From the NCBI GenBank assembly GCA_040387935.1, contig JAZKCU010000027.1, positions 9,474-73,473 on the forward strand: 64,000 nucleotides of DNA. The letters are read 5' to 3'. How positions within the stretch are numbered: position 1 is the first letter of the stretch; the number at the start of each line of letters is the position of its first letter. Positions 47,544 through 63,987 of the stretch are shown piece by piece. The notes under the pieces are model-generated. The model was not told the origin of the DNA and did not search any database. It saw only the letters and a program-made list of their open reading frames with translations. Position numbers and translations under genes: made by a program. The stretch comes from Verrucomicrobiota bacterium. GTDB lineage: Bacteria > Verrucomicrobiota > Verrucomicrobiia > Verrucomicrobiales > Verrucomicrobiaceae.

Positions 47544-48167
47544 ATGGCCATGTCTTCCTCATCACCCGTCTGTGCCACGCTGCTGCTCGCGGGCGGGAGA
47601 TCTCAGCGTATGGGGACGGACAAGGCGCTGCTTTCCTGGCGGGGGAGTCCGCTCTGGCAGGTGCAGCTCGGGAAGCTGCTGGAGCTCGAGAGTCATCATT
47701 GCTTTGTGTCCTGCCGCGAGGAGCAGAACCTGCATGTGGGATGTCCCGACGCCAAGGTGACGTGGCTCTTTGATCCGGAAAACGACGAAAATGGACCGCT
47801 GGGTGCCATCTCCCGTGCTTTGTCATCAGTCTCCGTGCCGCTCATCGTGCTGGCGGTGGACATGCCCCTCATGACCCTGGATTTTCTGCGCGCGCGGCTG
47901 GAGCGTTCACGGGAGTGCGGCTGCTTTTTCTCCACGGTTCATGGCATCGAGCCCATGACTGGCTGCTATGCGTCTGCCATGCTGCCCGTCATGGAGAGGC
48001 GGCTGGCCCGCGGTGAAAGGAGCCTGCAAAAGCTCATCACGGAATGTGTGGAGCAGGGGCTGGCCCAAGTGAAGCCGCTGACCGCGGAGGAGGAGGGGCT
48101 TTTTGCCAATGCCAACACGCCGGGTGAATGGCAGGATTGCCAGCTTTTCAAAGAGCGCCTAGGTTGA
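47544..48167 (+). CDS. mobA: molybdenum cofactor guanylyltransferase MobA
   Basis: LLAGGRSQRMGTDKALL signature. Directly follows moaA. Confidence 0.7.
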   Translation: MAMSSSSPVCATLLLAGGRSQRMGTDKALLSWRGSPLWQVQLGKLLELESHHCFVSCREEQNLHVGCPDAKVTWLFDPENDENGPLGAISRALSSVSVPLIVLAVDMPLMTLDFLRARLERSRECGCFFSTVHGIEPMTGCYASAMLPVMERRLARGERSLQKLITECVEQGLAQVKPLTAEEEGLFANANTPGEWQDCQLFKERLG

Positions 48168-50698
48168 TGGAGTTCTGCCCCATGCTTTTTCCCCGCTTCC
48201 CCGTTTCCGCTTTCACGCTGCTGGCCCTGGCCAGTCCGGTCCTGCATGGAAAGGGGCTGGAAGACATGCCGGAATACCGCGCCGCACGGCAGGCGCTGAG
48301 TGATGGGCTGCCGGCTGTGGCCGCCCTGAAGGCCACGCGGCTCATGACGGCGGCCAGTGGCACTGATCGGCAGACCCTGGCGACGCTGGCGGTCGAGGCC
48401 TGGGTGCATGCCCGCCGCGGTGATGAAGCACTCAAACTCCTGGCCAGCGAGCAGGTGCCAAATGCCGATTTTTGGAAGGCTCAGGCTCAGGTGCAGGCAG
48501 GTGATCTGGAGGCAGCGGAGAAACTGCTGACGGCCCGTGTGCAGGACAAGACCGCGACTGATGCCGAGCGACTGCTGCTGGCTCAGGTGAGCCTGGCCTC
48601 TGGCAATCTGGCGCAGGCCCGCGAGGTGCTGGACTCTCTGCGCAAGGTTGATGACAAAGTCGTGGCCGACCGTTCAAGGATCATGTGGGACGAGGTGGAA
48701 CTGCGTTCCGGCCGTGCCGAACCTGCGCTGGCAGACCTAACCTCCTCTGATCATCCACTGGATGCCAAGGCCCGGCTGCTGCTGGCCGAGGGTCTGGTGG
48801 ATCAAAACCGCATCACTGAAGCGCAGGGAGAGCTTCGGGAACTCGTAAGCAGCACGGAGGGCGGTGAGCGGGTACACCATGCCGCCTCAGTTCTGCTGGC
48901 GGAGTCCTGGTTCCGCCAGGGCAATGCGGCCCAGGCTGTGGAAGGACTCGTGCAATTTCTGGACAACACGGCTGAGAGCGATTTGTGGAGCGGTGCCTTT
49001 GACCTGCTGGCTCGTTGCCTGAATGAGGTGACTGGAAGCCTGCCTCCGGATGCCACGCTGCGCTGGATCACCGAGGGCAATGCCGCGCAGAAAGCCGCCC
49101 TGACATCGCCAGCCACGACCTCGACCTTCCAGGGTCACGCCATGCTGCTGATGGCACGCTGGCTGGTGGCCCAGAAGCGTGAGGACGAGTCTCTCGGTCT
49201 GCTTGAAGCACTCATCCAGGTCCACTCCGGGCATCCGCAGTCCAATGAGGCCATGCAACTGGCTCTGGAAACCTACAGCACCCGCAAGGCGGATGAACGG
49301 GTGGCCGTGCTGACGGAGATGTGGAAGCGCCGCTTTGGCAACCAAGGCTCCGCCATGGTGGAGTTCGTCACCGCAGGCACGGCCTATGCCCGTGGCGATT
49401 ACGCGCGCAGCGCGCAGATTTTTCAAAACGCTGCCAATCTGGCCGCGACCCTGGCTGAGCGGCGCTCTGCTCTCTACAACGCCGGCGTGGCCGCGCTGCA
49501 CGGCGGTGAAATGCTCTTGTATCAAAATTTGCTAGGCCAGCTGCAGGTGGTCAGCGGTGATGCGGCGGTGGCATCTAAAGATGGTTCGGCGGACCTGGAG
49601 TTGGACAAGGCGCTGGAGGCTGCTGCGAAGGATAAAAGCGAGGCCGAGGCGGAACTTCGCGGCTTCATGGAAAAGCACAGCCAGCATCCGCGTTTGTTTG
49701 AGGCCCAGATGGCGCTGGCCGAACTGCTTTTGCTGCGTGTGCCCACGGATTTCGCCGGCGTGGACCGCGTGCTGGCCGCGGTGGAGTCCTCCCAGGCCCT
49801 GACGGAACGTCAGCGCGAACGGCTCGTCATGACGCAACTCTGGCGTCTGGATCGTGCAGGCAGGCTGAAGGAACTGACGGAGGCCGGAAGTGCCTTCATC
49901 AAGGCCTGGCCAGCCACCCCCCAGACCGCGCTGGTGCGCATGAAGATGGCAGATGCGTTTTTCAGGCTGGAGAACTTTGCTGCGGCGCGCACCGAATTTG
50001 AACTGGTGGCCAAGGAAGCCGCGAGCTCCTCCTACGCGGACACAGCGCTGTATTTCGCAGGCATGTCAGCGCTGTCCATGATGAGTGATGAAGGCCGTGA
50101 GACGGCGATCGACCTCTGGCAGGAGCTGGCGGAGCGCGGCGGGCCGCTCAGCATCCCGGCACGACAGCAGCAGGCCATGGCTCTGCGGAGATCCGGCAAG
50201 GAGGCGGAGGCGCTGAAGCTTGTGGACATCCTGCTTGGGGAACCCAAGCTCCCGAAAGCTCTCCGCCGCTCCATGATGTGTGAAAAGGCAGAGATTCTGA
50301 TGCTGCTAGGCAAGACAGATGCCGCTTCCCTGACGGCGGCCATCAAGGTGCTGCAGGATCTGATCCGCGAGCCTGACCTGTCCTTCGACTGGCGCGCGCG
50401 TGCGGGCTATACGCTGGCCGTGGCGTTGCAGTCTTCCGGCCAGGTGACGGAGGCACTGGAAGCCTGCTATGACGTGGTAGGGGCCGATGGTTTCACAGGG
50501 CCGGCAGATCCTGCAGAGTTTCGCTGGTACTACCGCGCTGGATTTTTCGGCATCGATCTCATGGAAAGTACCAAGCAGTGGGAGGCCGCTGCCCGTCTGG
50601 CCGAAAAACTAGCCGTCAGTTCTGGAGACCGGGCTGCTGAAGCCAAGGAACGAGCCACGAAAATCCGCCTGGAGCATTTCCTGTGGGACGGCAAGTGA
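48167..50698 (+). CDS. secreted tetratricopeptide-repeat (TPR) protein
   Basis: The start overlaps the mobA stop (TGATG). Signal peptide, then about 800 aa of Ala/Leu-rich helical repeats. Confidence 0.55.
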   Translation: MEFCPMLFPRFPVSAFTLLALASPVLHGKGLEDMPEYRAARQALSDGLPAVAALKATRLMTAASGTDRQTLATLAVEAWVHARRGDEALKLLASEQVPNADFWKAQAQVQAGDLEAAEKLLTARVQDKTATDAERLLLAQVSLASGNLAQAREVLDSLRKVDDKVVADRSRIMWDEVELRSGRAEPALADLTSSDHPLDAKARLLLAEGLVDQNRITEAQGELRELVSSTEGGERVHHAASVLLAESWFRQGNAAQAVEGLVQFLDNTAESDLWSGAFDLLARCLNEVTGSLPPDATLRWITEGNAAQKAALTSPATTSTFQGHAMLLMARWLVAQKREDESLGLLEALIQVHSGHPQSNEAMQLALETYSTRKADERVAVLTEMWKRRFGNQGSAMVEFVTAGTAYARGDYARSAQIFQNAANLAATLAERRSALYNAGVAALHGGEMLLYQNLLGQLQVVSGDAAVASKDGSADLELDKALEAAAKDKSEAEAELRGFMEKHSQHPRLFEAQMALAELLLLRVPTDFAGVDRVLAAVESSQALTERQRERLVMTQLWRLDRAGRLKELTEAGSAFIKAWPATPQTALVRMKMADAFFRLENFAAARTEFELVAKEAASSSYADTALYFAGMSALSMMSDEGRETAIDLWQELAERGGPLSIPARQQQAMALRRSGKEAEALKLVDILLGEPKLPKALRRSMMCEKAEILMLLGKTDAASLTAAIKVLQDLIREPDLSFDWRARAGYTLAVALQSSGQVTEALEACYDVVGADGFTGPADPAEFRWYYRAGFFGIDLMESTKQWEAAARLAEKLAVSSGDRAAEAKERATKIRLEHFLWDGK

Positions 50699-53680: not shown

Positions 53681-54343
53681 GTGTTTGAACTCTACCAGGC
53701 CTCCATTTCGCCGCACCAAATCCTCCTCACGCTACTTCTGGCGCTGGTGGTCTTCTATTGGCTCCTCGTCATCTTAGGTGCGCTGGACTTCGAGACCGAC
53801 CTCCCCGACGACTTTGGCGATGGGGGCGGAGATGCGGACGGTGGCATCCATCATGGTCACGGCCACGGCGTGAACACTGGTGGTGCCTGGCTGACCGCAG
53901 GGCGTTTCTTTGGCTTCTCCCAGGTGCCCATCGCCGTCTGGGGCAGCTTCATGATCCTCTTCATGTGGTTCACCTCGCTCGTGCTGAACCAGGTGTGGAA
54001 TCCCGATGCCGACACAGGCCGCGCGCTCCTGCTCGTGCTGCCAAATTTCATCATCAGCGCCATTATCACCAAGATCGTCACCATCCCGGTCGCGAAGCTC
54101 TTCAAGGCCATGGCAGATGCTGACACCGAGGCCGAGGAAGTCATTGGGCGCACCGGCATCGTCTGCTCCATCGAGGCGGACGAGCGCTACGGCCAGCTTG
54201 AGATCAGCGCCATGGGCGTCCCGCTGCTGATCAACGTGCGCACTCTTCCCGGCCAACCAACTTTGCCGAAAGGCACCACCGCCCTGGTCATCTCCGCAGG
54301 CCCTGACCACGCCTACTACTTCATCGAACCTCTCAAATCATAA
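53681..54343 (+). CDS. NfeD/YqiJ-like inner-membrane protein (OB-fold, flotillin partner)
   Basis: Two N-terminal TM segments, a Gly/His/Asp-rich loop and a C-terminal beta-rich (OB-like) domain. Lies immediately upstream of a flotillin gene, as in yqiJ-yqiK. Confidence 0.6.
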   Translation: MFELYQASISPHQILLTLLLALVVFYWLLVILGALDFETDLPDDFGDGGGDADGGIHHGHGHGVNTGGAWLTAGRFFGFSQVPIAVWGSFMILFMWFTSLVLNQVWNPDADTGRALLLVLPNFIISAIITKIVTIPVAKLFKAMADADTEAEEVIGRTGIVCSIEADERYGQLEISAMGVPLLINVRTLPGQPTLPKGTTALVISAGPDHAYYFIEPLKS

Positions 54344-54366: not shown

Positions 54367-56448
54367 ATGCACATCCCACCCCTCGCTGTCCTCCTTGAAG
54401 GCAGCATCCTCGTCGGAGTCATCGTCATCGGCATCTTCCTCGGGGTGCTCATCCTCTTCTCGCGGTTCTTCCGCAAGGTCACGCAGGGCCAGGCCATCGT
54501 CCGGAACGGCATTGGCGGCACCAAGGTCTCCTTCAATGGCATGATCGTCATCCCCGTGGCGCATCAGGCGGAGTACATGGACATCTCCGTGAAGCGCATC
54601 GAGATCGAGCGTAAGGCCAATGAAGGCCTGATCTGTAAAGACAATCTGCGCGCTGACATCAAGGTCGCCTTCTTCGTCCGTGTGAACAAAACCCCGGAGG
54701 ACGTCCTCCGCGTCGCCCAGAGCATCGGCTGTGCCCGCGCCAGTGCGGTGGATACCATCCGCGTGCTGTTTGATGCAAAGTTCTCCGAGGCGCTGAAGAC
54801 TGTCGGCAAGCGCTTCGACTTTGTGCAGCTTTACAATGAGCGTGATCATTTCAAAAGCGAGATTCTCAAGGTCATCGGCACCGATCTGAACGGCTTCACG
54901 CTGGACGACTGCGCCATCGACTTCCTTGAGCAGACACGCCTCGAAAACCTCGACCCCGACAACATCCTCGACGCTGAAGGCATCAAGAAAATCACCGAGC
55001 TCACCGCCGCCCAAGCCAAGCTTTCCAACAACATTCAGCGCGACAAGGAAAAGGTCATCAAGCAGCAGGACGTGCAGGCCCGCGAGGCCATCCTGGAACT
55101 GGAGCGCCAGCTCGCCGAGACCGAGTCCAAGCAGAAGCGTGATGTCGAAAGCGTGCGTGCCCGTGAGCAGGCTGAAACCTTGAAAGTGCAGGAAGAGGAG
55201 CGCCTGAAATCCGAGCGCGCCCGCATCACCTCGGACGAGGAAATCGCCGTCGCCACGCAGAACAAAGAGCGCCAAGTCCTCGTGGCCCAGCGCAGCAAGG
55301 AACGCACGGATGCGGTCGAGATCGAGCGCGTCACCCGTGATCGCGACCTCGAGATCATCGAGCGCGAGCGCATCACCACACTCAAGAGCATCGAGAAGGA
55401 AAAGGCGGTCGAAATCGAGAAGAAGAACATCCAGGAGGTCATCAAGGACCGCGTCGCCCTGGAGAAGACCGTGGTCGTCGAGCAGCAGAAGATGAAGGAC
55501 ACCGAGGCCTTTGCCACGGCTGATCGTGAGAAGCAGGTGGCCCTGACCAACGCGGAGAAAAACGCGCAGGAGCAGCTCATTCAAAAGATCAAGGAAGCCG
55601 AAGCCGCGAAGCAGGCCGCCCAGCTCGCTGCCGAGCAGGCCGCCTTCACTTCCATCAAGGCTGCCGAGGCTGCCAAACAGTCCGCCGAGTTGCACGCTCA
55701 GGAGATCCTCACGCTTGCCGAGGCACGCCAGGAATCCGCCGCCAAGGATGCCTCCGCCGAGAAGTCTCTCGCTGAAGGCAGAACCGCCAGTTCCGCCGCC
55801 ATCGGGCTCGGTGAGGCGCAGGTCTTGCTCGCCAAGGCCGATGCCTCGCAGAGACAGGGCACCGTGGATGCCGAGGTCACGCAGCTCAAGCTCGCTGCCG
55901 AAGCCGATGGCATCACGAAGAAAGCGCAGGCCATGAAGCTGCTCGAAAACGCCGGTCGCGAGCATGAGGAGTTCAAGCTCAACCTTGAGAAGGACAAGGC
56001 CATCGCCCTCGCCGAGATCCACATCCAGAAGGACATCGCCGCCGCCCAGGCCGGGGTCCTTGGAGAAGCCATGAAGTCCGCCAAGATCGAGATCGTCGGC
56101 GGAGAAACCCAGTTCTTCGACAAGATCACCAACGCCATCGGCAATGCCCGCGCCATCGACCGCATGGTCGAAGGCAGCCGCACGCTCACGGATGTGAAGG
56201 AGACTTTCTTCAATGGTGATCCCGACTACTTCAAAGCCCAGCTCAAGACCATCATCGACCAGTTTGGCCTAACCAGTGAAGATACCAAGAACCTCACCCT
56301 CAGCGCCCTGTTTGCCAAATTGATCGGCCTCAACCCCGATGCCAGCACTGTGAACAAGCTCACCGGCATGATCGGCGCCGCCTCCAGGTTCGGCCTCACC
56401 GAGCAAACCGTCGCCGGCCTCCTCACCTCGAAGGCGGTGAAGAAGTAA
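54367..56448 (+). CDS. flotillin-family SPFH/band-7 protein (YqiK-like), long form with extended coiled-coil
   Basis: N-terminal TM, an SPFH core (QAIVRNGIGGTKVSFNGMIVIPVAHQ...), then about 400 aa of E/A/K-rich coiled coil. Confidence 0.8.
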   Translation: MHIPPLAVLLEGSILVGVIVIGIFLGVLILFSRFFRKVTQGQAIVRNGIGGTKVSFNGMIVIPVAHQAEYMDISVKRIEIERKANEGLICKDNLRADIKVAFFVRVNKTPEDVLRVAQSIGCARASAVDTIRVLFDAKFSEALKTVGKRFDFVQLYNERDHFKSEILKVIGTDLNGFTLDDCAIDFLEQTRLENLDPDNILDAEGIKKITELTAAQAKLSNNIQRDKEKVIKQQDVQAREAILELERQLAETESKQKRDVESVRAREQAETLKVQEEERLKSERARITSDEEIAVATQNKERQVLVAQRSKERTDAVEIERVTRDRDLEIIERERITTLKSIEKEKAVEIEKKNIQEVIKDRVALEKTVVVEQQKMKDTEAFATADREKQVALTNAEKNAQEQLIQKIKEAEAAKQAAQLAAEQAAFTSIKAAEAAKQSAELHAQEILTLAEARQESAAKDASAEKSLAEGRTASSAAIGLGEAQVLLAKADASQRQGTVDAEVTQLKLAAEADGITKKAQAMKLLENAGREHEEFKLNLEKDKAIALAEIHIQKDIAAAQAGVLGEAMKSAKIEIVGGETQFFDKITNAIGNARAIDRMVEGSRTLTDVKETFFNGDPDYFKAQLKTIIDQFGLTSEDTKNLTLSALFAKLIGLNPDASTVNKLTGMIGAASRFGLTEQTVAGLLTSKAVKK

Positions 56449-56461
56449 GTCACTCCCTCAA

Positions 56462-56980
56462 ATGTTATCAAAGCTTAAAGCCTGCGTTCAGCAGTTTTTA
56501 TCTGAAAGACCGCACAAGGCGGGTGAGACCGTTCAATTCGGCTGGTTCTGGTTTCGCATCGTCGAAGCGGGTTCTCCGCCGGAGATCGAAACCTTGGACA
56601 TGAAAGGCATGGCTTCATTCACGACTGATTTTCATGAAGCTGAGCGCGTTCATCAGGAGCAGTGCCGGATGGTGACTGCCAATGGGGTCGAGGCTGATGA
56701 TTCCATCACCTTGATGCACAGCGCTTTGGTATCGAAGAACTACAGGCCTGGCGTTTCTGATGCCTTCTTGAAGCATGATGAGCCCTCCGGAGGCATCGAT
56801 AGTGGATGGTATGTGGGCATCTACGATGACCCCCTGGATATGGATGATCCGGACTCCTTCCACCGTCAGTCACTCTATGAACTGACCATCCATGACATGC
56901 GCATGGCTCGCTACTGGACTCTGCCTCAAGCTTTCCTGGTTCACCTGGACACCAGCGTCGTAGACGATTTGAGGGAATGA
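56462..56980 (+). CDS. hypothetical acidic, Trp-rich cytoplasmic protein
   Basis: 172 aa, starts 14 bp after flotillin (FGWFWFRIVEAG...). The 3' end overlaps the next gene by 4 nt. Confidence 0.5.
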   Translation: MLSKLKACVQQFLSERPHKAGETVQFGWFWFRIVEAGSPPEIETLDMKGMASFTTDFHEAERVHQEQCRMVTANGVEADDSITLMHSALVSKNYRPGVSDAFLKHDEPSGGIDSGWYVGIYDDPLDMDDPDSFHRQSLYELTIHDMRMARYWTLPQAFLVHLDTSVVDDLRE

Positions 56981-57264
56981 GCCTCCAGCCCTGGAACACT
57001 ATGGCCATCGCCGCTCCATCCGCCCACAGCACGACCTCCTCACCCGAGATTGTGCATCGGGAAATCGTGGTCTTGCTTCCCGATCAGGAGCCGGAGCATT
57101 GGAAAAAAGTGAAGTGGGGCACAACCACAAGAGTCGTCTGGACCGTGATCTCCGTGGTGCTTCATCTCGTGGGCGCATTCTCGGTCTCCGGATGGATTGC
57201 CTTCTTCATCCTTTTGCATCTGGTCTTGTCCATCACCTCCATCTGGCGAGACACCCATGGCTGA
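56977..57264 (+). CDS. small membrane protein (2 TM)
   Basis: 95 aa with an ATGA overlap to the upstream gene. Hydrophobic segments VWTVISVVLHLVGAF and IAFFILLHLVLSI. Confidence 0.4.
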   Translation: MSLQPWNTMAIAAPSAHSTTSSPEIVHREIVVLLPDQEPEHWKKVKWGTTTRVVWTVISVVLHLVGAFSVSGWIAFFILLHLVLSITSIWRDTHG

Positions 57265-57317: not shown

Positions 57318-60300
57318 ATGGCTGACCCCGCCCCATCTCCCCTCCAGGCCCCGTCCCAGCTCGAAGCTGGCGCTTACGAAGTCATCCGTCAGCGCCTCGC
57401 CAAACACGGCGGCGAGCTCCAGCGCCGTCTCGAATTGCTGAACAACGACCGCAAGGCCGAGTTCGGCGGCATCGAGACCGCCCTGCTCGCCACCACGCGC
57501 CTCACCACGGACAACAACTGCGTTCCGCGTGACATGGCCGCCATCGGCCCGAAACGCTTTTTGTTCGGCTACAACGTCCACCTCGGCCTGCGGACGACGA
57601 TGAAGATCGAGGACGTCTTCTCGGCCTACGACTACCAGGAGGGCGACAATAGCTTCCACACGAACAAGCAGAACCTGCTCGGCGATCCGCAGTTCGCGGA
57701 GGATTTCGCTTATCTCTACAGTTACTACAAGCACGCCACCTTCCTCAAGTTCCACCGCATCGGCCCGCACCTTTACATGGGTTTCCAGGTCGGACAGCGC
57801 GCCACCGAAGTCAAAACCTTCAAATGGCTCGTCGATGACGAGGCGGGCACGCTCAAATACCTCGGCAATCGAAGCGATCACGAGTTCGTCTTCCCCACGC
57901 CGCAGGAGTTTGCGTGGAAGAGGGCCACGCGGGACATGTATCGCCACGGCGTGCATCCGCACATCAGCATCGAGGACCGCGTGTTTGTGGAGACCATCGG
58001 CGGAGATCTCACCGTCAAGGTGGAGAACAACACCGAGACCGGGCGCGGCATCTACAACGAGCCGGTCGACAACAAGGACCAGACGCTCGATGACGCGGAG
58101 GTGCACTACGCCATCGTCGGCAATCTCGTGCTGATGAAGGTGCTGCCGTATCAGGAGAAGCTGTGGCGCCATCTCGTGTTCAACGAGCGCACCCGCGAGG
58201 CTCATCGCATTGACAGCATCGCCGAGAGCTGCGTGCTGCTGCCGGATGATCACGGCATCCTTTTCCCGCATGGTTATGTGCTGCAGACCGGCGAGGTGCG
58301 CCGCTTTGACACGGGCCTGCCGCCCATGCGTTTTGAGAAGCGCATCTCCGCCGCGAATGGTGAGGACACGCTCTACGTCTTCAGCCATCTGGAAAGCGGC
58401 TCCTACCTGCTGCTCAGCTACAATCTCATCACGCAGACCATCGCCACGCCGCAGCCCTGCCACGGCTTCAGCCTCTTCCCCACTGGCGAGCTCATCCTCT
58501 TTGATGCTGATGCCGAGCCGCGCAAGCACCACGTGGTGCAGGTCTGGCGCACGCCCTTTCTCACCGCTGATGTCAGCGAGGCCAAGGCCGCGCAGACCTT
58601 TCTCAGCAAAATTGGTAATGCCGAAATCGTCCGTGCCATGGCCGAGGCACGAGGTGTGCTCACCTTGCTCGCCAAGGATGATTCCTTCTCCGGCCTCTAT
58701 GTCGAACTCGTTCGCACCTGCGGTGACATCGCCGATAGTTACTTTTGGGTAGGCAATGCCGAGGCGCATGACCTCAAGAGCGCACTGCTGGAGATCAAGA
58801 CCACTGCTGAAGCCGCTCTGGCCGAGTTTGAAAAAGTGCGGCGCATGCGCAAGACCGCCGCGGAGCAGACCACGGCTCTTCAAGAGAAGGTGCAGAAAGC
58901 GCTCGGCTCCGCTGCGAACACCGATCCCTCGGACATCCTCGGCTTTGTCCAGCTTCTCACGACTCTGCGGGAGCTGCGCGGCCAGGCCATCTCATTACGC
59001 GATGTTCGTTATACCGATGCGGCCACCATCGACCAGATGGACAAGTCTCTGGCCGAAGGCACAGACAAGCTCAGCGCCAAGTGCGTGACCTTCCTGCTCA
59101 AGCCGGAAGCACTCGATCCTTACCGCAAGCAGATCACCGAGCAGCAGGCCCGCGTGCCGAACCTAGCGAAAGTTACTGAAGCTCAAGAGGTCGAGGAAGC
59201 CCTCGCGAGATCCAGCAACGAGCTGGAGATGCTCACCGCCATCGTCAGCGGCCTGAAGATCCAGGATGCCACCGAGACCACGCGCATCATCGAGGGCATC
59301 TCCACGCTCTTTGCCCAGCTCAACCAGGTGCGCAGCGTCCTGCGCAACCGCCGCAATGACCTCGCGAAATCTGAAGGCGCCGCGCAGTTTCAGGCGCAGC
59401 TCAGTTTGCTCAGCCAGAGCGTGCTGAACTACCTCGAGGTGGCCACCACGCCGGAGAAGTGTGATGAGTCCCTCACCCGCGTGCTGGTGCAGATCGAGGA
59501 GATGGAGACCCGCTTCTCCGACTTCGATGACTATGCGGCCGAGCTCATCAAGAAGCGCGAGGAGGTGCAGACCGCCTTTGAGTCCCGCCGGCAGAACCTC
59601 AAGGATGTCCTGAACCGCCGCTGCAACAGCCTCGGCCAGTCCGCCGAGCGCATCCTCGGCAGCATCCGCAACCGCCTAACCACCTTTGCCAAGCCTGAGG
59701 TGGTCCATGCCTGGCTGGCGGCCGATGCCATGGTGGCGAAGCTGCGCGACCTCCTCGATGAACTCCGCAAACTCGGCGACAGCGTCCGCGCGGATGAGCT
59801 CTCCACACGCCTCAAGACCGTCCAGCAGGATTCGCTGAAGCAGATTCGTGACAAGGCCGAGATCTTCGTCGGTGGCGGAGACCTCATCAAATTTGGCCAG
59901 CACCAGTTCAGCGTGAACAAGCAGCCGCTGGAACTGACCATCCTCCCACGCGATGGCGGTCTCGCCTTCCACCTCACCGGCACACGTTTCTTTGAAAAGG
60001 TCGTCAATGCCGAGCTGGAAACCCAGCGCAGCGTCTGGGATCAGGCCGTCGTTTCAGAGAACAATGAAGTTTACCGCGCCGAATACCTGGCCTGGCAGAT
60101 GCACAAATCTGGCGCGGGTGATGACGTCGCCGCCTTCATGTCCCAGCGCTATCATGAAGGCTACACCAAGGGTGTGCATGACCACGATGCCGCTCTCATC
60201 CTGAAACCGCTGCGTGAGATGGAGCAGGCGCTCGGCCTTCTCCGCCACTCTCCCGCCGCCCGTGGTTGCGCCAGGCTCTTCTGGCACGCCTGGCCTGAGG

Positions 60301-62342
60301 ATTCTGACAAGAAATCCCTCACCGCCCGCATGCAGTCGAAAGGGCGGATGAAGGAGTTGTTAGGCGCTTCTAGCACCGACGTGCCGCGTTCGCTCCTGGA
60401 CTTTGTGGAGCGCGAGTGTCCTCACTCGCAGGCCGGTGACTTGCGGGTGAGGACACCCGCACTCCAGATCGCCGCCTGTCTCATCGACGAGCTCCAGTCC
60501 AAGCATCCGTTTTCACGCTCCGCTGCTGCGATTGATCTCCTGCGCTCTTTCCGCAAGGAGCTCACCGCCAAGCGCGCCACCAAGGATTTTGAAGACACGC
60601 TTGAAGCCCTTTCGTCCGAGTCCTGGCTGGCCTTCGAGATCGCTCTTGAATGGCTGGCGGCGCTCCATCCTTCCGCCGACCGCGGCGTGATCATCGAGAC
60701 CGCTGCCATGGTGGTCGTCAAGGACACACCGCCCGCCGCCACACCTACTGAGCCGCCTTCACAAGCCACCATCACTGGCCTGACCGGTAATCACTCACGC
60801 ATCAGCGAGGCGAAACTCGAGCTCGACTACCATGAGTTCACCACGCGCCTCCAGCGTTATGAAAGGGAAGTCGTGCCTGCCTTTGAAGCCTTCCAGCAGC
60901 TCAAGCATCACCTCGGCGAGACCCGGCGGAAGGATCTGCGTCTGGATCAGTTCAAGGCTGGTGTGCTCAGCTCCTTCGTGCGCAACCGCCTGATCGATCA
61001 AGTGTATCTGCCGCTCATCGGCGCGAACCTCGCGAAGCAGCTCGGTGCTGCGGGCAAGGACACACGCACGGATCGCATGGGCCTGCTGCTGCTCATCTCC
61101 CCGCCCGGCTACGGCAAGACCACGCTCATGGAGTATGTGGCGAGCCGTCTCGGGATCACGCTGGTGAAGATCAATGGCCCTGCGCTCGGCCATCAAGTGA
61201 CCTCACTTGATCCTTCCGAAGCGAAAAACGCCAGTGCCCGCGAGGAAATCGAGAAGCTCAACCTCGCCTTTGAGATGGGTGACAACGTGATGATCTATCT
61301 GGATGACATCCAGCACACGAACCCTGAGTTCCTGCAAAAGTTCATCCCGCTCTGCGACGGCACCCGCAAGATCGAAGGCGTGTTCCAGGGCGAGGCCAAG
61401 ACCTATGATCTGCGCGGCCGCAAGGTCGCCGTGGTCATGGCGGGCAATCCCTACACCGAAGTCGGCGGCAAGTTCCAGGTGCCTGACATGCTCGCGAACC
61501 GGGCCGACACCTACAACCTCGGCGATATCCTCGGCGGCCATCAGGAAGCCTTCAAGGACAGCTACATCGAGAACGGCCTAACGAGTAATTCGACTCTCTC
61601 ACGCATTGCCGCGCGCAGTCATGCGGACGCGCTGGCCGTTTTGAAGATCGCCCAGACCCAAAGCCGCGAAGGCATCGAGTTTGAGGGCAGCTTCAGCGCG
61701 GAGGAGATCAATGACGCCGTCGTCGTCATGGAGAAGCTGCTGCATGTGCGCGAGATCATCCTGCGCGTGAACCAGGAGTATGTCCGCAGTGCCGCCACTG
61801 AGGACGCCTACCGCACCGAGCCGCCCTTCAAGCTCCAGGGTAGCTACCGGAACATGAACAAGATCGCCGAGAAGATCCTGCCGCTCATGACGGATGCCGA
61901 GGTGGCCACCCTCATCGCCGATCATTACCGCGGCGAGGCCCAGACCCTCAGCAAAGCCGCTGAGGCCAATCTCTTGAAGTGGCGTGAGATCAATGGTCTC
62001 GCCACTGAGGCCGACAAGCAGCGCTGGAACGAAATCAAGAGCACCTTCAAGCGCAACCTCCTCACCGGTGGCGCTGGCGAAAACGACCCCATCAACCGCA
62101 TCACCGGCCACCTGAGCGCCTTCACTGCGGGGCTTGAAAAGATTGAGCAAGCCGTCGCCCAACCAACTTTATCGGACATCACCATCGAGAAGCTCCGAAC
62201 CATCATCGAAGCCCTCCGCGCCGTCCCTGTGAACGTCGAGATCAAAGTGCAGCCCGTCGAAAAAGAAGTTGCTGGCGAGCCGCCCATCGACATCGCAAGC
62301 GAGGTCGAACAACCCACGGCTTCGAAGAAGAAAAAGCCCTGA
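57318..62342 (+). CDS. giant (1674 aa) protein: N-terminal beta-rich domain + long helical/coiled-coil region + C-terminal AAA+ (AAA_5/MoxR/McrB-like) P-loop ATPase
   Basis: Walker A LLISPPGYGKTT. Walker B IYLDDIQH. A sensor-like VVMAGNPYTE. The N-terminal ~480 aa are rich in aromatic/beta residues. About 700 aa of helical heptad-like sequence (A/E/L/K/R) lie between. Confidence 0.8.
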   Translation: MADPAPSPLQAPSQLEAGAYEVIRQRLAKHGGELQRRLELLNNDRKAEFGGIETALLATTRLTTDNNCVPRDMAAIGPKRFLFGYNVHLGLRTTMKIEDVFSAYDYQEGDNSFHTNKQNLLGDPQFAEDFAYLYSYYKHATFLKFHRIGPHLYMGFQVGQRATEVKTFKWLVDDEAGTLKYLGNRSDHEFVFPTPQEFAWKRATRDMYRHGVHPHISIEDRVFVETIGGDLTVKVENNTETGRGIYNEPVDNKDQTLDDAEVHYAIVGNLVLMKVLPYQEKLWRHLVFNERTREAHRIDSIAESCVLLPDDHGILFPHGYVLQTGEVRRFDTGLPPMRFEKRISAANGEDTLYVFSHLESGSYLLLSYNLITQTIATPQPCHGFSLFPTGELILFDADAEPRKHHVVQVWRTPFLTADVSEAKAAQTFLSKIGNAEIVRAMAEARGVLTLLAKDDSFSGLYVELVRTCGDIADSYFWVGNAEAHDLKSALLEIKTTAEAALAEFEKVRRMRKTAAEQTTALQEKVQKALGSAANTDPSDILGFVQLLTTLRELRGQAISLRDVRYTDAATIDQMDKSLAEGTDKLSAKCVTFLLKPEALDPYRKQITEQQARVPNLAKVTEAQEVEEALARSSNELEMLTAIVSGLKIQDATETTRIIEGISTLFAQLNQVRSVLRNRRNDLAKSEGAAQFQAQLSLLSQSVLNYLEVATTPEKCDESLTRVLVQIEEMETRFSDFDDYAAELIKKREEVQTAFESRRQNLKDVLNRRCNSLGQSAERILGSIRNRLTTFAKPEVVHAWLAADAMVAKLRDLLDELRKLGDSVRADELSTRLKTVQQDSLKQIRDKAEIFVGGGDLIKFGQHQFSVNKQPLELTILPRDGGLAFHLTGTRFFEKVVNAELETQRSVWDQAVVSENNEVYRAEYLAWQMHKSGAGDDVAAFMSQRYHEGYTKGVHDHDAALILKPLREMEQALGLLRHSPAARGCARLFWHAWPEDSDKKSLTARMQSKGRMKELLGASSTDVPRSLLDFVERECPHSQAGDLRVRTPALQIAACLIDELQSKHPFSRSAAAIDLLRSFRKELTAKRATKDFEDTLEALSSESWLAFEIALEWLAALHPSADRGVIIETAAMVVVKDTPPAATPTEPPSQATITGLTGNHSRISEAKLELDYHEFTTRLQRYEREVVPAFEAFQQLKHHLGETRRKDLRLDQFKAGVLSSFVRNRLIDQVYLPLIGANLAKQLGAAGKDTRTDRMGLLLLISPPGYGKTTLMEYVASRLGITLVKINGPALGHQVTSLDPSEAKNASAREEIEKLNLAFEMGDNVMIYLDDIQHTNPEFLQKFIPLCDGTRKIEGVFQGEAKTYDLRGRKVAVVMAGNPYTEVGGKFQVPDMLANRADTYNLGDILGGHQEAFKDSYIENGLTSNSTLSRIAARSHADALAVLKIAQTQSREGIEFEGSFSAEEINDAVVVMEKLLHVREIILRVNQEYVRSAATEDAYRTEPPFKLQGSYRNMNKIAEKILPLMTDAEVATLIADHYRGEAQTLSKAAEANLLKWREINGLATEADKQRWNEIKSTFKRNLLTGGAGENDPINRITGHLSAFTAGLEKIEQAVAQPTLSDITIEKLRTIIEALRAVPVNVEIKVQPVEKEVAGEPPIDIASEVEQPTASKKKKP

Positions 62343-62395: not shown

Positions 62396-62742
62396 CGTCG
62401 ACACCGCTATCGAGCGCATATGACGTCTCCCGATTTGAAGGATGCTCTTTGCGCACCTAGCGGTGTCGCGCCTTGGAGCTTGTTACCGTAGTCCGGGACG
62501 CTCCGCGACTCCTCCGCTTGTCGTCAACATATCGATCATCACGATTTCTTAATCATCCTTTTCTCGACGTGATGCCGGTCGCCTTGGTAGCTTCGCTTAT
62601 CCATGAGAAGGCATGCATCCCAACAAAGGCCGTGATTCGCCGTCCTGCATGCGAGTCCTTTTTACAAAGCCTTGACGGACCATCGAACAGAATCGCGCCA
62701 CTGCTTTCCAACGTCCCGCGCCAGCCAACCCTCCCCCTAACC

Positions 62743-63987
62743 ATGCGTGTCCTGAACTCTTCCCGTGTCGTCTTGGTTCTCCTGGCCCTTTCCGGCCTTG
62801 TCTGCGGGCAGCAGCCCGCTCCCGCGCCGACACCAGCACCACCCTCTGTTCGGGCGCAGCCTCCGACTGGGGTGCCACCAGCGACGGTCACACCACCTGC
62901 GCCGGTCACGCCGGAACGGGCACATCCCAACGTCATGCCGACGCCTCCACGGCCGACGATACCCGCCGTGAATCCGGCCTTGCCGCCGCAGAGACGCATC
63001 CCTCCCGCGCCCGCTATGCCCGCTCAGCCTGCCGCGCCGGTGGATGCGCGTGTGCCGACCATCGAGCGTGAGCGCACGGTGTATGTGCCGTTTGAAGATT
63101 TGGAGAAGGTCTTCAAGGATGGCGGCAAGGGGGTCTTCCTGCCTTACCGCGAGTTTCTGGATCTCTGGAACGAGCTCACTTTAAAGCGTGAGAAGGATGA
63201 CAAGCCGCCGCCAGCGGATGCCGTGCTGGCACGCGCTGAATACACGGGGCGTGTGGAAGGTGAGAGCCTGATCCTGGATGCGAAGATCACGGTCGAGTCC
63301 TTTAAAAAAGGCTGGGTGCTGCTGCCGCTGGTGGGGAATGCGCCGGCCATCGGTGAAGCGGAGACGGGCAAGGCCGTGCTGCGCATGAAGGATGGTGGCG
63401 CGGATGTGCTGCTGCCGGAAAAGGGCAGCTATGAGCTGGCGCTGAAGATCTATGCGCCCATCAAACGCGCGGACGGGAAGAACCGCGTGACGCTGAATCT
63501 GCCGCGCGCCGCGGTGTCCCGCCTGAGCATCGCGGTGCCGGGAGAGGGGCTGGAGTTCACGATGAATCCGGCGGCGGCGTATACCACGCAGGTCGCGGCA
63601 GGGCAGACGCAGTTCTCCTGCTTCTTCGGCAGCGGCGGAGCCCAGGAGATCGCCTGGGGTGCGGCGCAGGCGGTGACGCAGATGCAGCCGCTGGTGCTGG
63701 CCAGCACAAAGATGACCACGCGCATCGGCGTGGCCTCGGTGAGCACGCAGGCGGACATTGCCTATCGAATTTTGCGTTCACCCGTGGCGGAGCTGCAGAT
63801 CAAGCTGCCGGCCACGCAGGAGGTGCTGGGCGTGACGGGAGCCGGCATCAAGGAATGGAAGATCAACATGCCTGCGGTCGCGGGGAACCTGGAGCAGGCG
63901 CAGAAGACGCTGGTCATCAGCCTGGAGAAACCGGTGCGGGATGACTTAAGCCCAATGCCGTTAAGCAATAATGACTGTACAACATGA
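62743..63987 (+). CDS. secreted hypothetical protein with Pro-rich N-terminal linker; C-terminus falls in a low-GC tail
   Basis: The ORF runs from 62473; the likely start is MRVLNSSRVVLVLLALSGLVCG (signal peptide). The stop sits inside an atypical AT-rich segment at the window edge. Confidence 0.45.
   Translation: MRVLNSSRVVLVLLALSGLVCGQQPAPAPTPAPPSVRAQPPTGVPPATVTPPAPVTPERAHPNVMPTPPRPTIPAVNPALPPQRRIPPAPAMPAQPAAPVDARVPTIERERTVYVPFEDLEKVFKDGGKGVFLPYREFLDLWNELTLKREKDDKPPPADAVLARAEYTGRVEGESLILDAKITVESFKKGWVLLPLVGNAPAIGEAETGKAVLRMKDGGADVLLPEKGSYELALKIYAPIKRADGKNRVTLNLPRAAVSRLSIAVPGEGLEFTMNPAAAYTTQVAAGQTQFSCFFGSGGAQEIAWGAAQAVTQMQPLVLASTKMTTRIGVASVSTQADIAYRILRSPVAELQIKLPATQEVLGVTGAGIKEWKINMPAVAGNLEQAQKTLVISLEKPVRDDLSPMPLSNNDCTT

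Follow-up and report, generated by a model that had tools for sequence, protein, structure and literature searches.

Flotillins and other SPFH proteins form closed membrane cages, and PspA forms ESCRT-III-like polymers. To our knowledge, HflK/C-FtsH is the only well-established partnership between an SPFH protein and an AAA+ machine. It is mentioned in PMC11188069, and according to a 2025 review bacteria seem to have no Vps4-like ATPase for PspA (PMC7619361). An operon in which a large ATPase is encoded together with a flotillin has already been described by comparative genomics, as has the architecture of this ATPase (Ravi et al. 2024, mSystems; PMC11237479). Table S3 of that study lists 'Betapropeller+Coiled-coil+AAA-ATPase' for Dokdonia, abbreviated operons without PspA are noted as widespread, and a chaperone-like, ATP-dependent assembly of sub-membrane complexes is proposed; the description takes up one paragraph and is given without structure, motif analysis or experiment (PMC11237479). 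In a survey of SPFH operons from 2009 the ATPase is not mentioned (PMC2636767). Here we analyse a member of this family encoded at positions 57318..62342 (+ strand) of a 64,000-nucleotide stretch of contig JAZKCU010000027.1 from a Verrucomicrobiota bacterium, referred to below as the window. Judging from gene context, we put the chances at about even that this ATPase works with the flotillin module, and with PspA scaffolds, at the membrane as a cytoplasmic, ATP-dependent partner.

The locus shares architecture and partners with the system of Ravi et al., and the Bacteroidota loci of our survey reproduce the Dokdonia operon (HTH-S24, a helix-turn-helix regulator, CesT/Tir, PspA, YqiJ, flotillin, ATPase). 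The window differs in having neither PspA nor CesT/Tir and in carrying two extra small genes between flotillin and ATPase, which we do not regard as an essential difference. The likeness to HflK/C-FtsH lies in the union of an SPFH scaffold and an AAA+ machine as one inner-membrane unit. FtsH, however, is a membrane-anchored zinc protease of the classical AAA clade, and the HflK/C cage faces the periplasm, whereas the window ATPase has neither a transmembrane (TM) segment nor a protease and possesses a propeller, a rod and a YqiK-type partner; homology is confined to the AAA+ fold. Vps4 and ESCRT-III provide a parallel in that an AAA+ ATPase is genetically coupled to a membrane-scaffolding polymer, PspA, an ESCRT-III relative, being encoded in the extended operon. 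In contrast to Vps4, the window ATPase has no MIT domain, no Vps4_C domain and no aromatic pore loop, and it matches PF00004 only in part; the two arrangements are not homologous.

Our neighbourhood survey comprised the best 80 loci, whose open reading frames (ORFs) were searched with the window proteins. Counts refer to those 61 loci for which 3.5 kb or more of upstream sequence was available; they come from seven phyla (Verrucomicrobiota, Planctomycetota, Bacteroidota, Desulfobacterota, Kiritimatiellota, Omnitrophota and Clostridia). In 58 of these 61 loci the ATPase gene is immediately preceded, on the same strand, by a flotillin homologue, often with a gap of less than 100 bp, and in 54 a YqiJ-like gene is found upstream as well. 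In the window, ORFs of 220, 693, 172 and 95 aa and the ATPase gene follow each other on the same strand with gaps of 23, 13, -4 and 53 bp. Pairwise identities of ATPase and flotillin are correlated (r = 0.82, 55 loci), which shows that the two are inherited together but not that they are in physical contact. Clustering of all neighbouring ORFs yielded no further widely conserved family and nothing conserved downstream, and a scan for small or hydrophobic ORFs found no general fourth gene in the gap between flotillin and ATPase. A promoter and terminator scan of the operon remained at chance level. An earlier note on this DNA had proposed that the protein binds foreign nucleic acid and has a missing partner such as an McrC-like protein or a nuclease. 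Neither McrC nor nuclease nor VWA partners are conserved among the neighbouring ORFs of the surveyed loci; only the YqiJ/NfeD2-like and YqiK-type flotillin families are, and these partners therefore point to the membrane and not to nucleic acid.

The first gene of the cassette (53681..54343, + strand) encodes a YqiJ/NfeD2-like inner-membrane protein of 220 aa. Its family profile (A6) was aligned to E. coli YqiJ by hhalign with a probability of 95.9% (E 5.6e-9, 179 columns), and Pfam recognised YqiJ_N in 3 and NfeD in 1 of 14 orthologues. A BLASTP comparison of this protein with E. coli YqiJ gave no significant match; the likeness is seen by profile comparison. The second gene (54367..56448, + strand) encodes the YqiK-type flotillin of 693 aa, named 'flotillin family protein / YqiK' at NCBI and JGI. 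A profile of 15 orthologues (A5) matched E. coli YqiK with an hhalign probability of 100% (E 4.7e-40, 31% identity, 412 columns), while Pfam Band_7 misses the window flotillin and matches 2 of the 15 orthologues. The protein consists of an N-terminal TM segment, the SPFH domain, a long Glu/Ala-rich coiled coil and a distinct C-terminal part of ~245 aa. Arg and Lys after the TM segment suggest that its bulk is cytoplasmic. Residues ~448-693 are conserved among ATPase-linked flotillins (e.g. KSAKIDIVGGET.FFD and DVKETFF.GDP) and do not align to E. coli YqiK; the C-terminal ~245 residues are a candidate docking site for the ATPase.

In 13 Bacteroidota loci, genes for CesT_Tir_1 (4.2e-54) and PspA_IM30 (3.9e-41) stand directly ahead of yqiJ and are accompanied by a divergent HTH-S24 regulator. 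The RefSeq annotation of a Hymenobacter plasmid contains the same PspA and CesT/Tir set. On pQBR103 (L082, NC_009444.1 85452-104464) the cassette directly follows a yjfJ-type PspA cluster. This cluster comprises PspA/IM30, a rhomboid protease, DUF2491, DUF350, DUF1190 and a glutathionylspermidine-synthase-like protein, and MvaT/MvaU is encoded downstream of the cassette. No PspA or CesT gene was found within the 64-kb window, which thus holds the abbreviated cassette of YqiJ, flotillin and ATPase. The trio was also found on P. fluorescens SBW25 pQBR103, on a Streptomyces linear plasmid, on a Hymenobacter plasmid and on the Proteus mirabilis chromosome; homologues from Proteobacteria, Actinomycetota and Deinococcus surfaced among plasmid records. 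Two PLSDB entries of Proteus mirabilis (NZ_OL790812.1 and NZ_OL790811.1) are termed plasmids at a size of 4.08 Mb and evidently are chromosomes; the trio is located there at L089:4940-12878.

The ATPase gene starts with ATG and, with the stop codon included in the coordinates 57318..62342, encodes a protein of 1674 aa with beta-propeller, helical rod and AAA+ module. The identical protein is deposited at NCBI as MES2598829.1 under the name 'MAG: DNA repair ATPase [Verrucomicrobiota bacterium]'. Its nearest named relatives are from Brevifollis gellanilyticus (91% identity) and Prosthecobacter (~85%). More than 2900 homologues were found, a scan with one genome per species revealed relatives in at least 592 species genomes, and a search of cluster representatives with the head region as the query matched 251 clusters (50% identity) at E<=1e-30. 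Because of this wide occurrence it is not a chance ORF. Pfam assigned DUF3686 to residues 33-476, DUF7902 to residues 597-680 and a single AAA/AAA_5 stretch from residue 1257 onwards, with the AAA match covering 1257-1338. All 240 homologues listed have PF00004 and PF25472, and all have PF12458 except the N-terminally truncated P0109. Full-length representatives measure 1600-2036 aa, with the head matched at the N-terminus. Between Verrucomicrobia and Clostridia, identity amounts to 71% over the core (1201-1430), 28% over 901-1200 and 27% over 1601-1674.

The layout had been thought unrecognised, yet Pfam models two of its parts (DUF3686 and DUF7902) and the same architecture is listed by Ravi et al. 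2024 (PMC11237479). The window protein has what characterises the DUF3686/DUF7902 AAA+ family, namely a DUF3686 head, a DUF7902 rod, one C-terminal AAA+ module and upstream YqiJ and flotillin genes. The family is a computationally described one and the window gene is a typical member of it. Searches of PADLOC, NCBIfam and Pfam for a functional family returned only domains of the DUF type and generic AAA models, and sequence and profile searches of the PDB for a solved relative yielded only P-loop matches. No experimentally characterised family absorbs the protein. Likewise, literature searches for DUF3686, PF12458, DUF7902 and flotillin with 'DNA repair ATPase' found nothing, and no experimental study of any member was found.

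The motor was compared in an alignment of 80 full-length members (from Verrucomicrobiota, Planctomycetota, Bacteroidota, Desulfobacterota, Kiritimatiellota, Omnitrophota, Clostridia, Pseudomonas and Streptomyces) and in a second, cross-phylum alignment of 17 AAA modules. The AAA+ module with its lid covers residues 1208-1585 (60939..62072, + strand). In the AlphaFold2 model the AAA+ core begins at ~1224 and the helical lid reaches to ~1585; Pfam, run on the C-terminal fragment, reported AAA with 6.8e-8 and AAA_5 with 5.4e-6. The ATPase motifs lie near residues 1260-1400, as the sequence had first been read. Walker A (SPPGYGKTT, residues 1261-1269 with K1267; 61098..61124, + strand) is invariant over SPPGYGKT among the 17 sequences, and at least 98% of the 80 members retain it. 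Walker B (VMIYLDDIQH, residues 1324-1333 with D1329/D1330; 61287..61316, + strand) contains an invariant DDIQH and carries Asp-Asp where Asp-Glu is usual. Sensor-1 (AGNPYTE, residues 1375-1381 with N1377; 61440..61460, + strand) is invariant across phyla at G1376, N1377, P1378, T1380 and E1381 and nearly so at A1375 and Y1379. AlphaFold2 predicts a pre-sensor-1 beta-hairpin (residues 1351-1364, 61368..61409, + strand; model residues 512-517 and 520-525) between the strands of Walker B and sensor-1.

A search for an arginine finger and a sensor-2 residue, which had been recommended, provided a candidate for each. R1395 in PDMLANRAD (61500..61502, + strand), invariant across phyla, is a candidate arginine finger by its position 18 residues past sensor-1, like the 'DRF' motifs of RuvB and MoxR; the surrounding PDML..R.D motif is essentially unchanged among the 80 members. 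R1511, part of QGSYRNMN where a lid helix begins (61848..61850, + strand), may be sensor-2, to judge from its G-x-x-R pattern at a helix start; it is invariant in alignments A3 and A7 and conserved in at least 85% of the 80 sequences. K1267, D1329/D1330, N1377 and R1395 are invariant among the 17 sequences and kept in at least 98% of the 80. Hence the Walker A lysine, the acidic pair of Walker B, a polar sensor-1 residue and a candidate arginine finger, the hallmarks of the AAA+ superfamily, are all present, and the motifs, invariant across phyla, are not degenerate. The loop that follows strand beta2 (1287-1304) is highly conserved as GPALGHxVTSLDP and is without the aromatic residue typical of threading unfoldases.

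The AAA module belongs to no characterised AAA+ family. Foldseek searches with the C-terminal model returned RuvB (5e-6) and CbbQ/NorQ (7e-6 to 3e-5), followed by MCM, dynein and Clp, at 13-18% identity. The highest TM-score normalised by target length (TMt) was that of CbbQ/NorQ (~0.5), with RuvB at 0.3-0.4. A family profile searched against the PDB matched the Walker A region of RuvB and p97 alone, with E >= 2.6e-4. With RuvB, CbbQ/NorQ and RavA the module shares an alpha/beta AAA+ core, the predicted pre-sensor-1 hairpin, a GPPGxGKT-like Walker A, 'GP' after beta2 and an Arg past sensor-1. It differs from RuvB and MoxR proteins in the low identity of 13-18%, the missing RuvA or VWA partner, ~1200 extra N-terminal residues and the Asp-Asp Walker B.

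Several families were tried and rejected. The assignment of an McrB/MoxR-like motor in the earlier note did not hold, RuvB and CbbQ/NorQ being about equally close in Foldseek. Alignment of the AAA-module profile to E. coli McrB by hhalign covered only 29 Walker-A columns, no McrB was among the top 50 Foldseek matches, the N-terminus of the window protein is a beta-propeller and no McrC-like neighbour is conserved. Against E. coli RavA, representing MoxR, hhalign gave a probability of 19% over 83 columns. AAA_5 scored 24.2-26.9 bits (cut-off 22) with the match ending at sensor-1, AAA_3 did not match, and no VWA gene is among the conserved neighbours. The AlphaFold2 prediction, moderately reliable here, has a conserved loop and no helix-2 hairpin between beta2 (1281-1286) and alpha2 (1305-1320). 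For RuvB, TIGR00635 reached 22.7 bits against a cut-off of 299 and RuvB_N 21-23.5 bits against 27, the latter match being confined to residues 1248-1293; RuvA was not seen among the neighbouring genes. The comparison with SMC-like mechanoenzymes had to be abandoned, as the ATPase is a contiguous C-terminal AAA+ module without the split ABC head of SMC, SbcC and Rad50 and no nuclease gene is a neighbour; PADLOC LmuB coiled-coil matches to residues 498-876 are weak (6.5e-5 and 4.4e-4). A likeness to dynein or midasin, which had also been suggested, would require six concatenated modules, whereas Pfam found one AAA stretch and AlphaFold2 one core with no second P-loop domain and no concatenated ring. 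Of the classical clade (Vps4, p97, FtsH), PF00004 scored 31.5-33.5 bits against 21.2, but over profile positions 1-73 or 1-109 of 131; the PDB matches to p97/VAT comprise the Walker A region only (E >= 3e-4), and loop 1287-1304 has no aromatic residue.

AlphaFold2 was run on a 46-sequence alignment of Verrucomicrobia and Clostridia homologues and yielded two overlapping models, of residues 1-860 (mean predicted local distance difference test, pLDDT, 84.4; predicted TM-score, pTM, 0.60) and of residues 840-1674 (mean pLDDT 81.8, pTM 0.70). Together with Pfam they bear out the three-part layout of beta-rich head, helical stalk and C-terminal AAA+ module that had been read from the letters. A long N-terminal helix (residues 14-49, 57357..57464, + strand; model ma67a8cbb3d3f) contains several invariant residues, among them Y20, R26, L27 and R45. 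It precedes the head (residues ~53-415, 57474..58562, + strand), which is the core of DUF3686 (PF12458; residues 33-476, profile positions 1-448 of 448, E 9.5e-180, 598 bits against a cut-off of 25). This domain corresponds to the aromatic-rich N-terminal domain of ~480 aa noted before, Phe, Trp and Tyr making up 12.1% of residues 53-415 compared with 5.0% of the rod. In a Foldseek search against the PDB the head matched beta-propellers, namely Sec12 (4.8e-7), the clathrin terminal domain, Elp1, WDR91, EED, PON1 and prolyl oligopeptidase, at 7-11% identity, and we therefore regard it as a divergent beta-propeller. DSSP assigned 28 beta-strands to residues 55-411 of the model, the number for seven four-stranded blades, so the head probably is seven-bladed. 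Clathrin heavy chain and IFT-A likewise combine a seven-bladed propeller at the N-terminus with a long helical leg (Foldseek of the head, E 1e-5 to 5e-4). This likeness is at the fold level only (8-12% identity, query-normalised TM-score <=0.16); the leg of the window protein appears spectrin-like, whereas theirs is an alpha-solenoid, and these coat proteins have no ATPase.

The rod (residues 428-850, 58599..59867, + strand) includes DUF7902 (PF25472; residues 597-680, 59106-59357, + strand, E 5e-27) and, according to the model, is built of spectrin-like helix bundles and not of a single continuous heptad coiled coil. Of the helical stalk of ~700 aa postulated earlier, a rod of ~420 aa thus remains, while the rest is a mixed middle domain of ~350 aa. 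This middle region (residues 851-1207, 59868..60938, + strand; model m55df4fed811c) is predicted to comprise a small beta domain (~856-895), a helical domain (~920-1135) and a beta-hairpin with a long connecting helix (1149-1207), and with the 28% given above it shows the lowest conservation in the protein. The C-terminal tail (residues 1586-1674, 62073..62339, + strand) is variable and of low confidence, pLDDT falling below 60 from model residue ~746. It is disordered in the model and unconserved between phyla, retains LRAVPVNVEIKV.PV in Verrucomicrobia and terminates here with SKKKKP. This tail could serve to bind the membrane or a partner in a lineage-specific manner. Neither Pfam nor the AlphaFold2 models indicated a membrane-spanning segment in the ATPase, and for this reason we infer a cytoplasmic location.

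The ATPase may thus be the third, cytoplasmic component of a module with the YqiJ/NfeD2-like protein and the YqiK-type flotillin. Its AAA+ modules would form a ring, by analogy to RuvB and CbbQ/NorQ, and the spectrin-like rods would hold the propeller heads away from it. The propellers, whose fold is a typical protein-binding one and thus speaks for such a role, would bind the flotillin assembly (possibly its C-terminal ~245 residues), YqiJ, PspA or clients on the inner side of the membrane. Driven by ATP hydrolysis, scaffolds would then be assembled, opened or dismantled in membrane maintenance or envelope stress. Such an action would be comparable in function to that of Vps4 on ESCRT-III or of FtsH inside the HflK/C cage. 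That the ATPase is the dedicated energy source for assembling, opening or dismantling flotillin cages and, where present, PspA/ESCRT-III-like polymers is a tentative and somewhat doubtful extension of this proposal.

Several points weigh against a joint role with the flotillin module. The functional reading is one of guilt by association, drawn from gene context, and our literature searches found no interaction, localisation or phenotype data for any member. Three of the 61 loci (L038, L054 and L065) have no adjacent flotillin. Since E. coli yqiJK and many other flotillin operons are without such an ATPase, it is no general requirement of flotillins. The beta2-alpha2 loop is without an aromatic residue and a Vps4-like threading mechanism is therefore not indicated. 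Furthermore, hydrolysis is assumed from the precedent of DnaA, which also has an Asp-Asp Walker B; by this analogy the Asp-Asp pair need not mean inactivity.

An AAA+ ATPase with intact motifs and a protein-binding propeller might also be a general cytoplasmic chaperone or quality-control machine that shares regulation with the flotillin, e.g. in a stress regulon, without acting on the scaffold. The MoxR-type remodelling chaperones CbbQ and NorQ among its structural neighbours and the three loci without adjacent flotillin would agree with this. We nevertheless consider it unlikely, because same-strand linkage in 58 of 61 loci from seven phyla exceeds what co-regulation usually maintains, the correlation of pairwise identities agrees with this, and no other client-type gene is conserved nearby. 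Quite improbable in our judgement is a role of the trio as an anti-phage or conflict system, in which the propeller would sense an invader or a membrane perturbation and ATPase and flotillin would execute abortive infection at the membrane. Its patchy spread over distant phyla at 44-50% identity suggests horizontal transfer, copies reside on megaplasmids (pQBR103, Hymenobacter, Streptomyces, Deinococcus), the wider genomic context is unconserved beyond close relatives, and small variable genes occur between flotillin and ATPase, with some loci adjoining transposase or toxin-antitoxin-like genes. On the other hand, upstream synteny is stable among the closest relatives, no PADLOC model matched apart from the weak coiled-coil LmuB (6.5e-5), and the neighbourhood contains no conserved effector of the nuclease, protease, TIR or pore-forming kind. 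For a defence gene the sequence is exceptionally well conserved (71% in the AAA core between phyla), architecture and length are constant, and the conserved extras are the envelope-stress genes PspA and CesT/Tir.

A function in DNA repair or processing, similar to SbcC/SMC or to the branch-migration motor RuvB, is what the name 'DNA repair ATPase' (PGAP) and the Pfam description of DUF3686, 'ATPase involved in DNA repair', imply. RuvB was indeed the best match of the AAA module in the profile search (2.6e-4) and in Foldseek (5e-6), and one close relative has AddAB-like genes downstream. The RuvB likeness, however, is confined to the generic P-loop region, as the TIGR00635 score far below its cut-off illustrates, and the motor is of the AAA+ type without a split ABC head. 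No DNA-binding domain and no conserved RuvA, SbcD or nuclease partner was found, neither the window nor the other loci have the AddAB-like genes, and the conserved partners are membrane proteins, all of which makes this function very improbable. Our guess is that the name arose from coiled-coil likeness to SbcC/SMC, a route illustrated by the weak LmuB match at residues 498-876. Hardly any credence is given to an McrBC-like restriction motor or an ATPase of the MoxR-VWA type. Pfam AAA_5 only barely exceeds its cut-off, CbbQ and NorQ with the highest TMt are among the best Foldseek matches, and the NP..E...P....R spacing past sensor-1 resembles MoxR motifs. Against this stand the poor hhalign results for RavA and McrB and the missing McrB among the Foldseek matches, as detailed above, the lack of a conserved McrC or VWA gene and of a helix-2 hairpin insert in the model, and a protein length three to five times that of members of either family.

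Two small ORFs separate flotillin and ATPase in the window. The first (172 aa, 56462..56980, + strand) has a weak Imm33-like match (E 1.3e-4, 22.2 bits against a cut-off of 27) and is absent in relatives with a 91-93% identical ATPase and in all 80 other loci. It is genome-specific, stands outside the conserved system and looks like a recent insertion. The second (ORF 56977..57264, + strand, 95 aa) encodes a small protein with a hydrophobic C-terminal half, with a probable start at 57001 that gives 87 aa from M9. Orthologues with 67-86% identity that start at M9 are found at the corresponding position in Brevifollis gellanilyticus (L084:9684-9947) and a JGI contig (L085:3031-3294), and none were found in more distant loci. 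The 87-aa protein may be a lineage-specific accessory and a fourth component in this lineage. Among loci L001-L081 the gap between flotillin and ATPase ranges from -11 to 1487 bp, and unrelated small ORFs are present in about half of them, for instance PDDEXK_3 (E 5.4e-33) in five Verrucomicrobia loci (e.g. L009:9516-9935) and two unrelated ORFs in L040. This slot seems to tolerate insertions.

The flanking genes of the window have no counterpart in the 80 related loci, and their conservation is limited to the closest relatives. On the upstream side, E1 dehydrogenase genes are retained in both Brevifollis and the JGI contig, whose ATPase is 93% identical. Downstream, these two relatives differ, the former having an IS200-type Y1 transposase (L084:15296-15742) and the latter AddAB-like PDDEXK/UvrD genes (L085:8657-14928). 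In the window the ATPase gene is followed by an ORF at 62473-63987 (+ strand) that starts with TTG and probably is over-extended; an ATG at 62743 opens the signal-peptide-like MRVLNSSRVVLVLLALSGLVCG, followed by a Pro-rich stretch. Pfam did not match this ORF, and the ~400-bp interval behind the ATPase gene suggests that it is transcribed separately. Further upstream, 48128-50698 (+ strand) encodes a protein of 856 aa rich in tetratricopeptide repeats (TPR), with partial matches to YbgF, BamD and LapB-like repeats and a weak PADLOC match to PDC-M16B (3.8e-7). It was not found beside the cassette in other loci and appears to be unrelated to it.

The system as such is not new, since its architecture has been catalogued and the operon already noted; it is a well-supported and testable lead on how bacterial flotillin/PspA scaffolds might be powered. 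The name 'DNA repair ATPase' is attached to thousands of entries, no supporting evidence for it was found, and its correction would stop the mis-annotation from spreading. The cassette is present in culturable and potentially tractable hosts, including Proteus mirabilis, Pseudomonas fluorescens with pQBR103, Streptomyces, Clostridium and Hymenobacter. Being tied genetically to flotillin in hundreds of species, the ATPase is a candidate for powering the loading, opening and recycling of flotillin/PspA scaffolds. If this is true, it would be the functional equivalent of Vps4 but stem from an unrelated AAA+ lineage, with spectrin-like arms that carry propellers at their tips.

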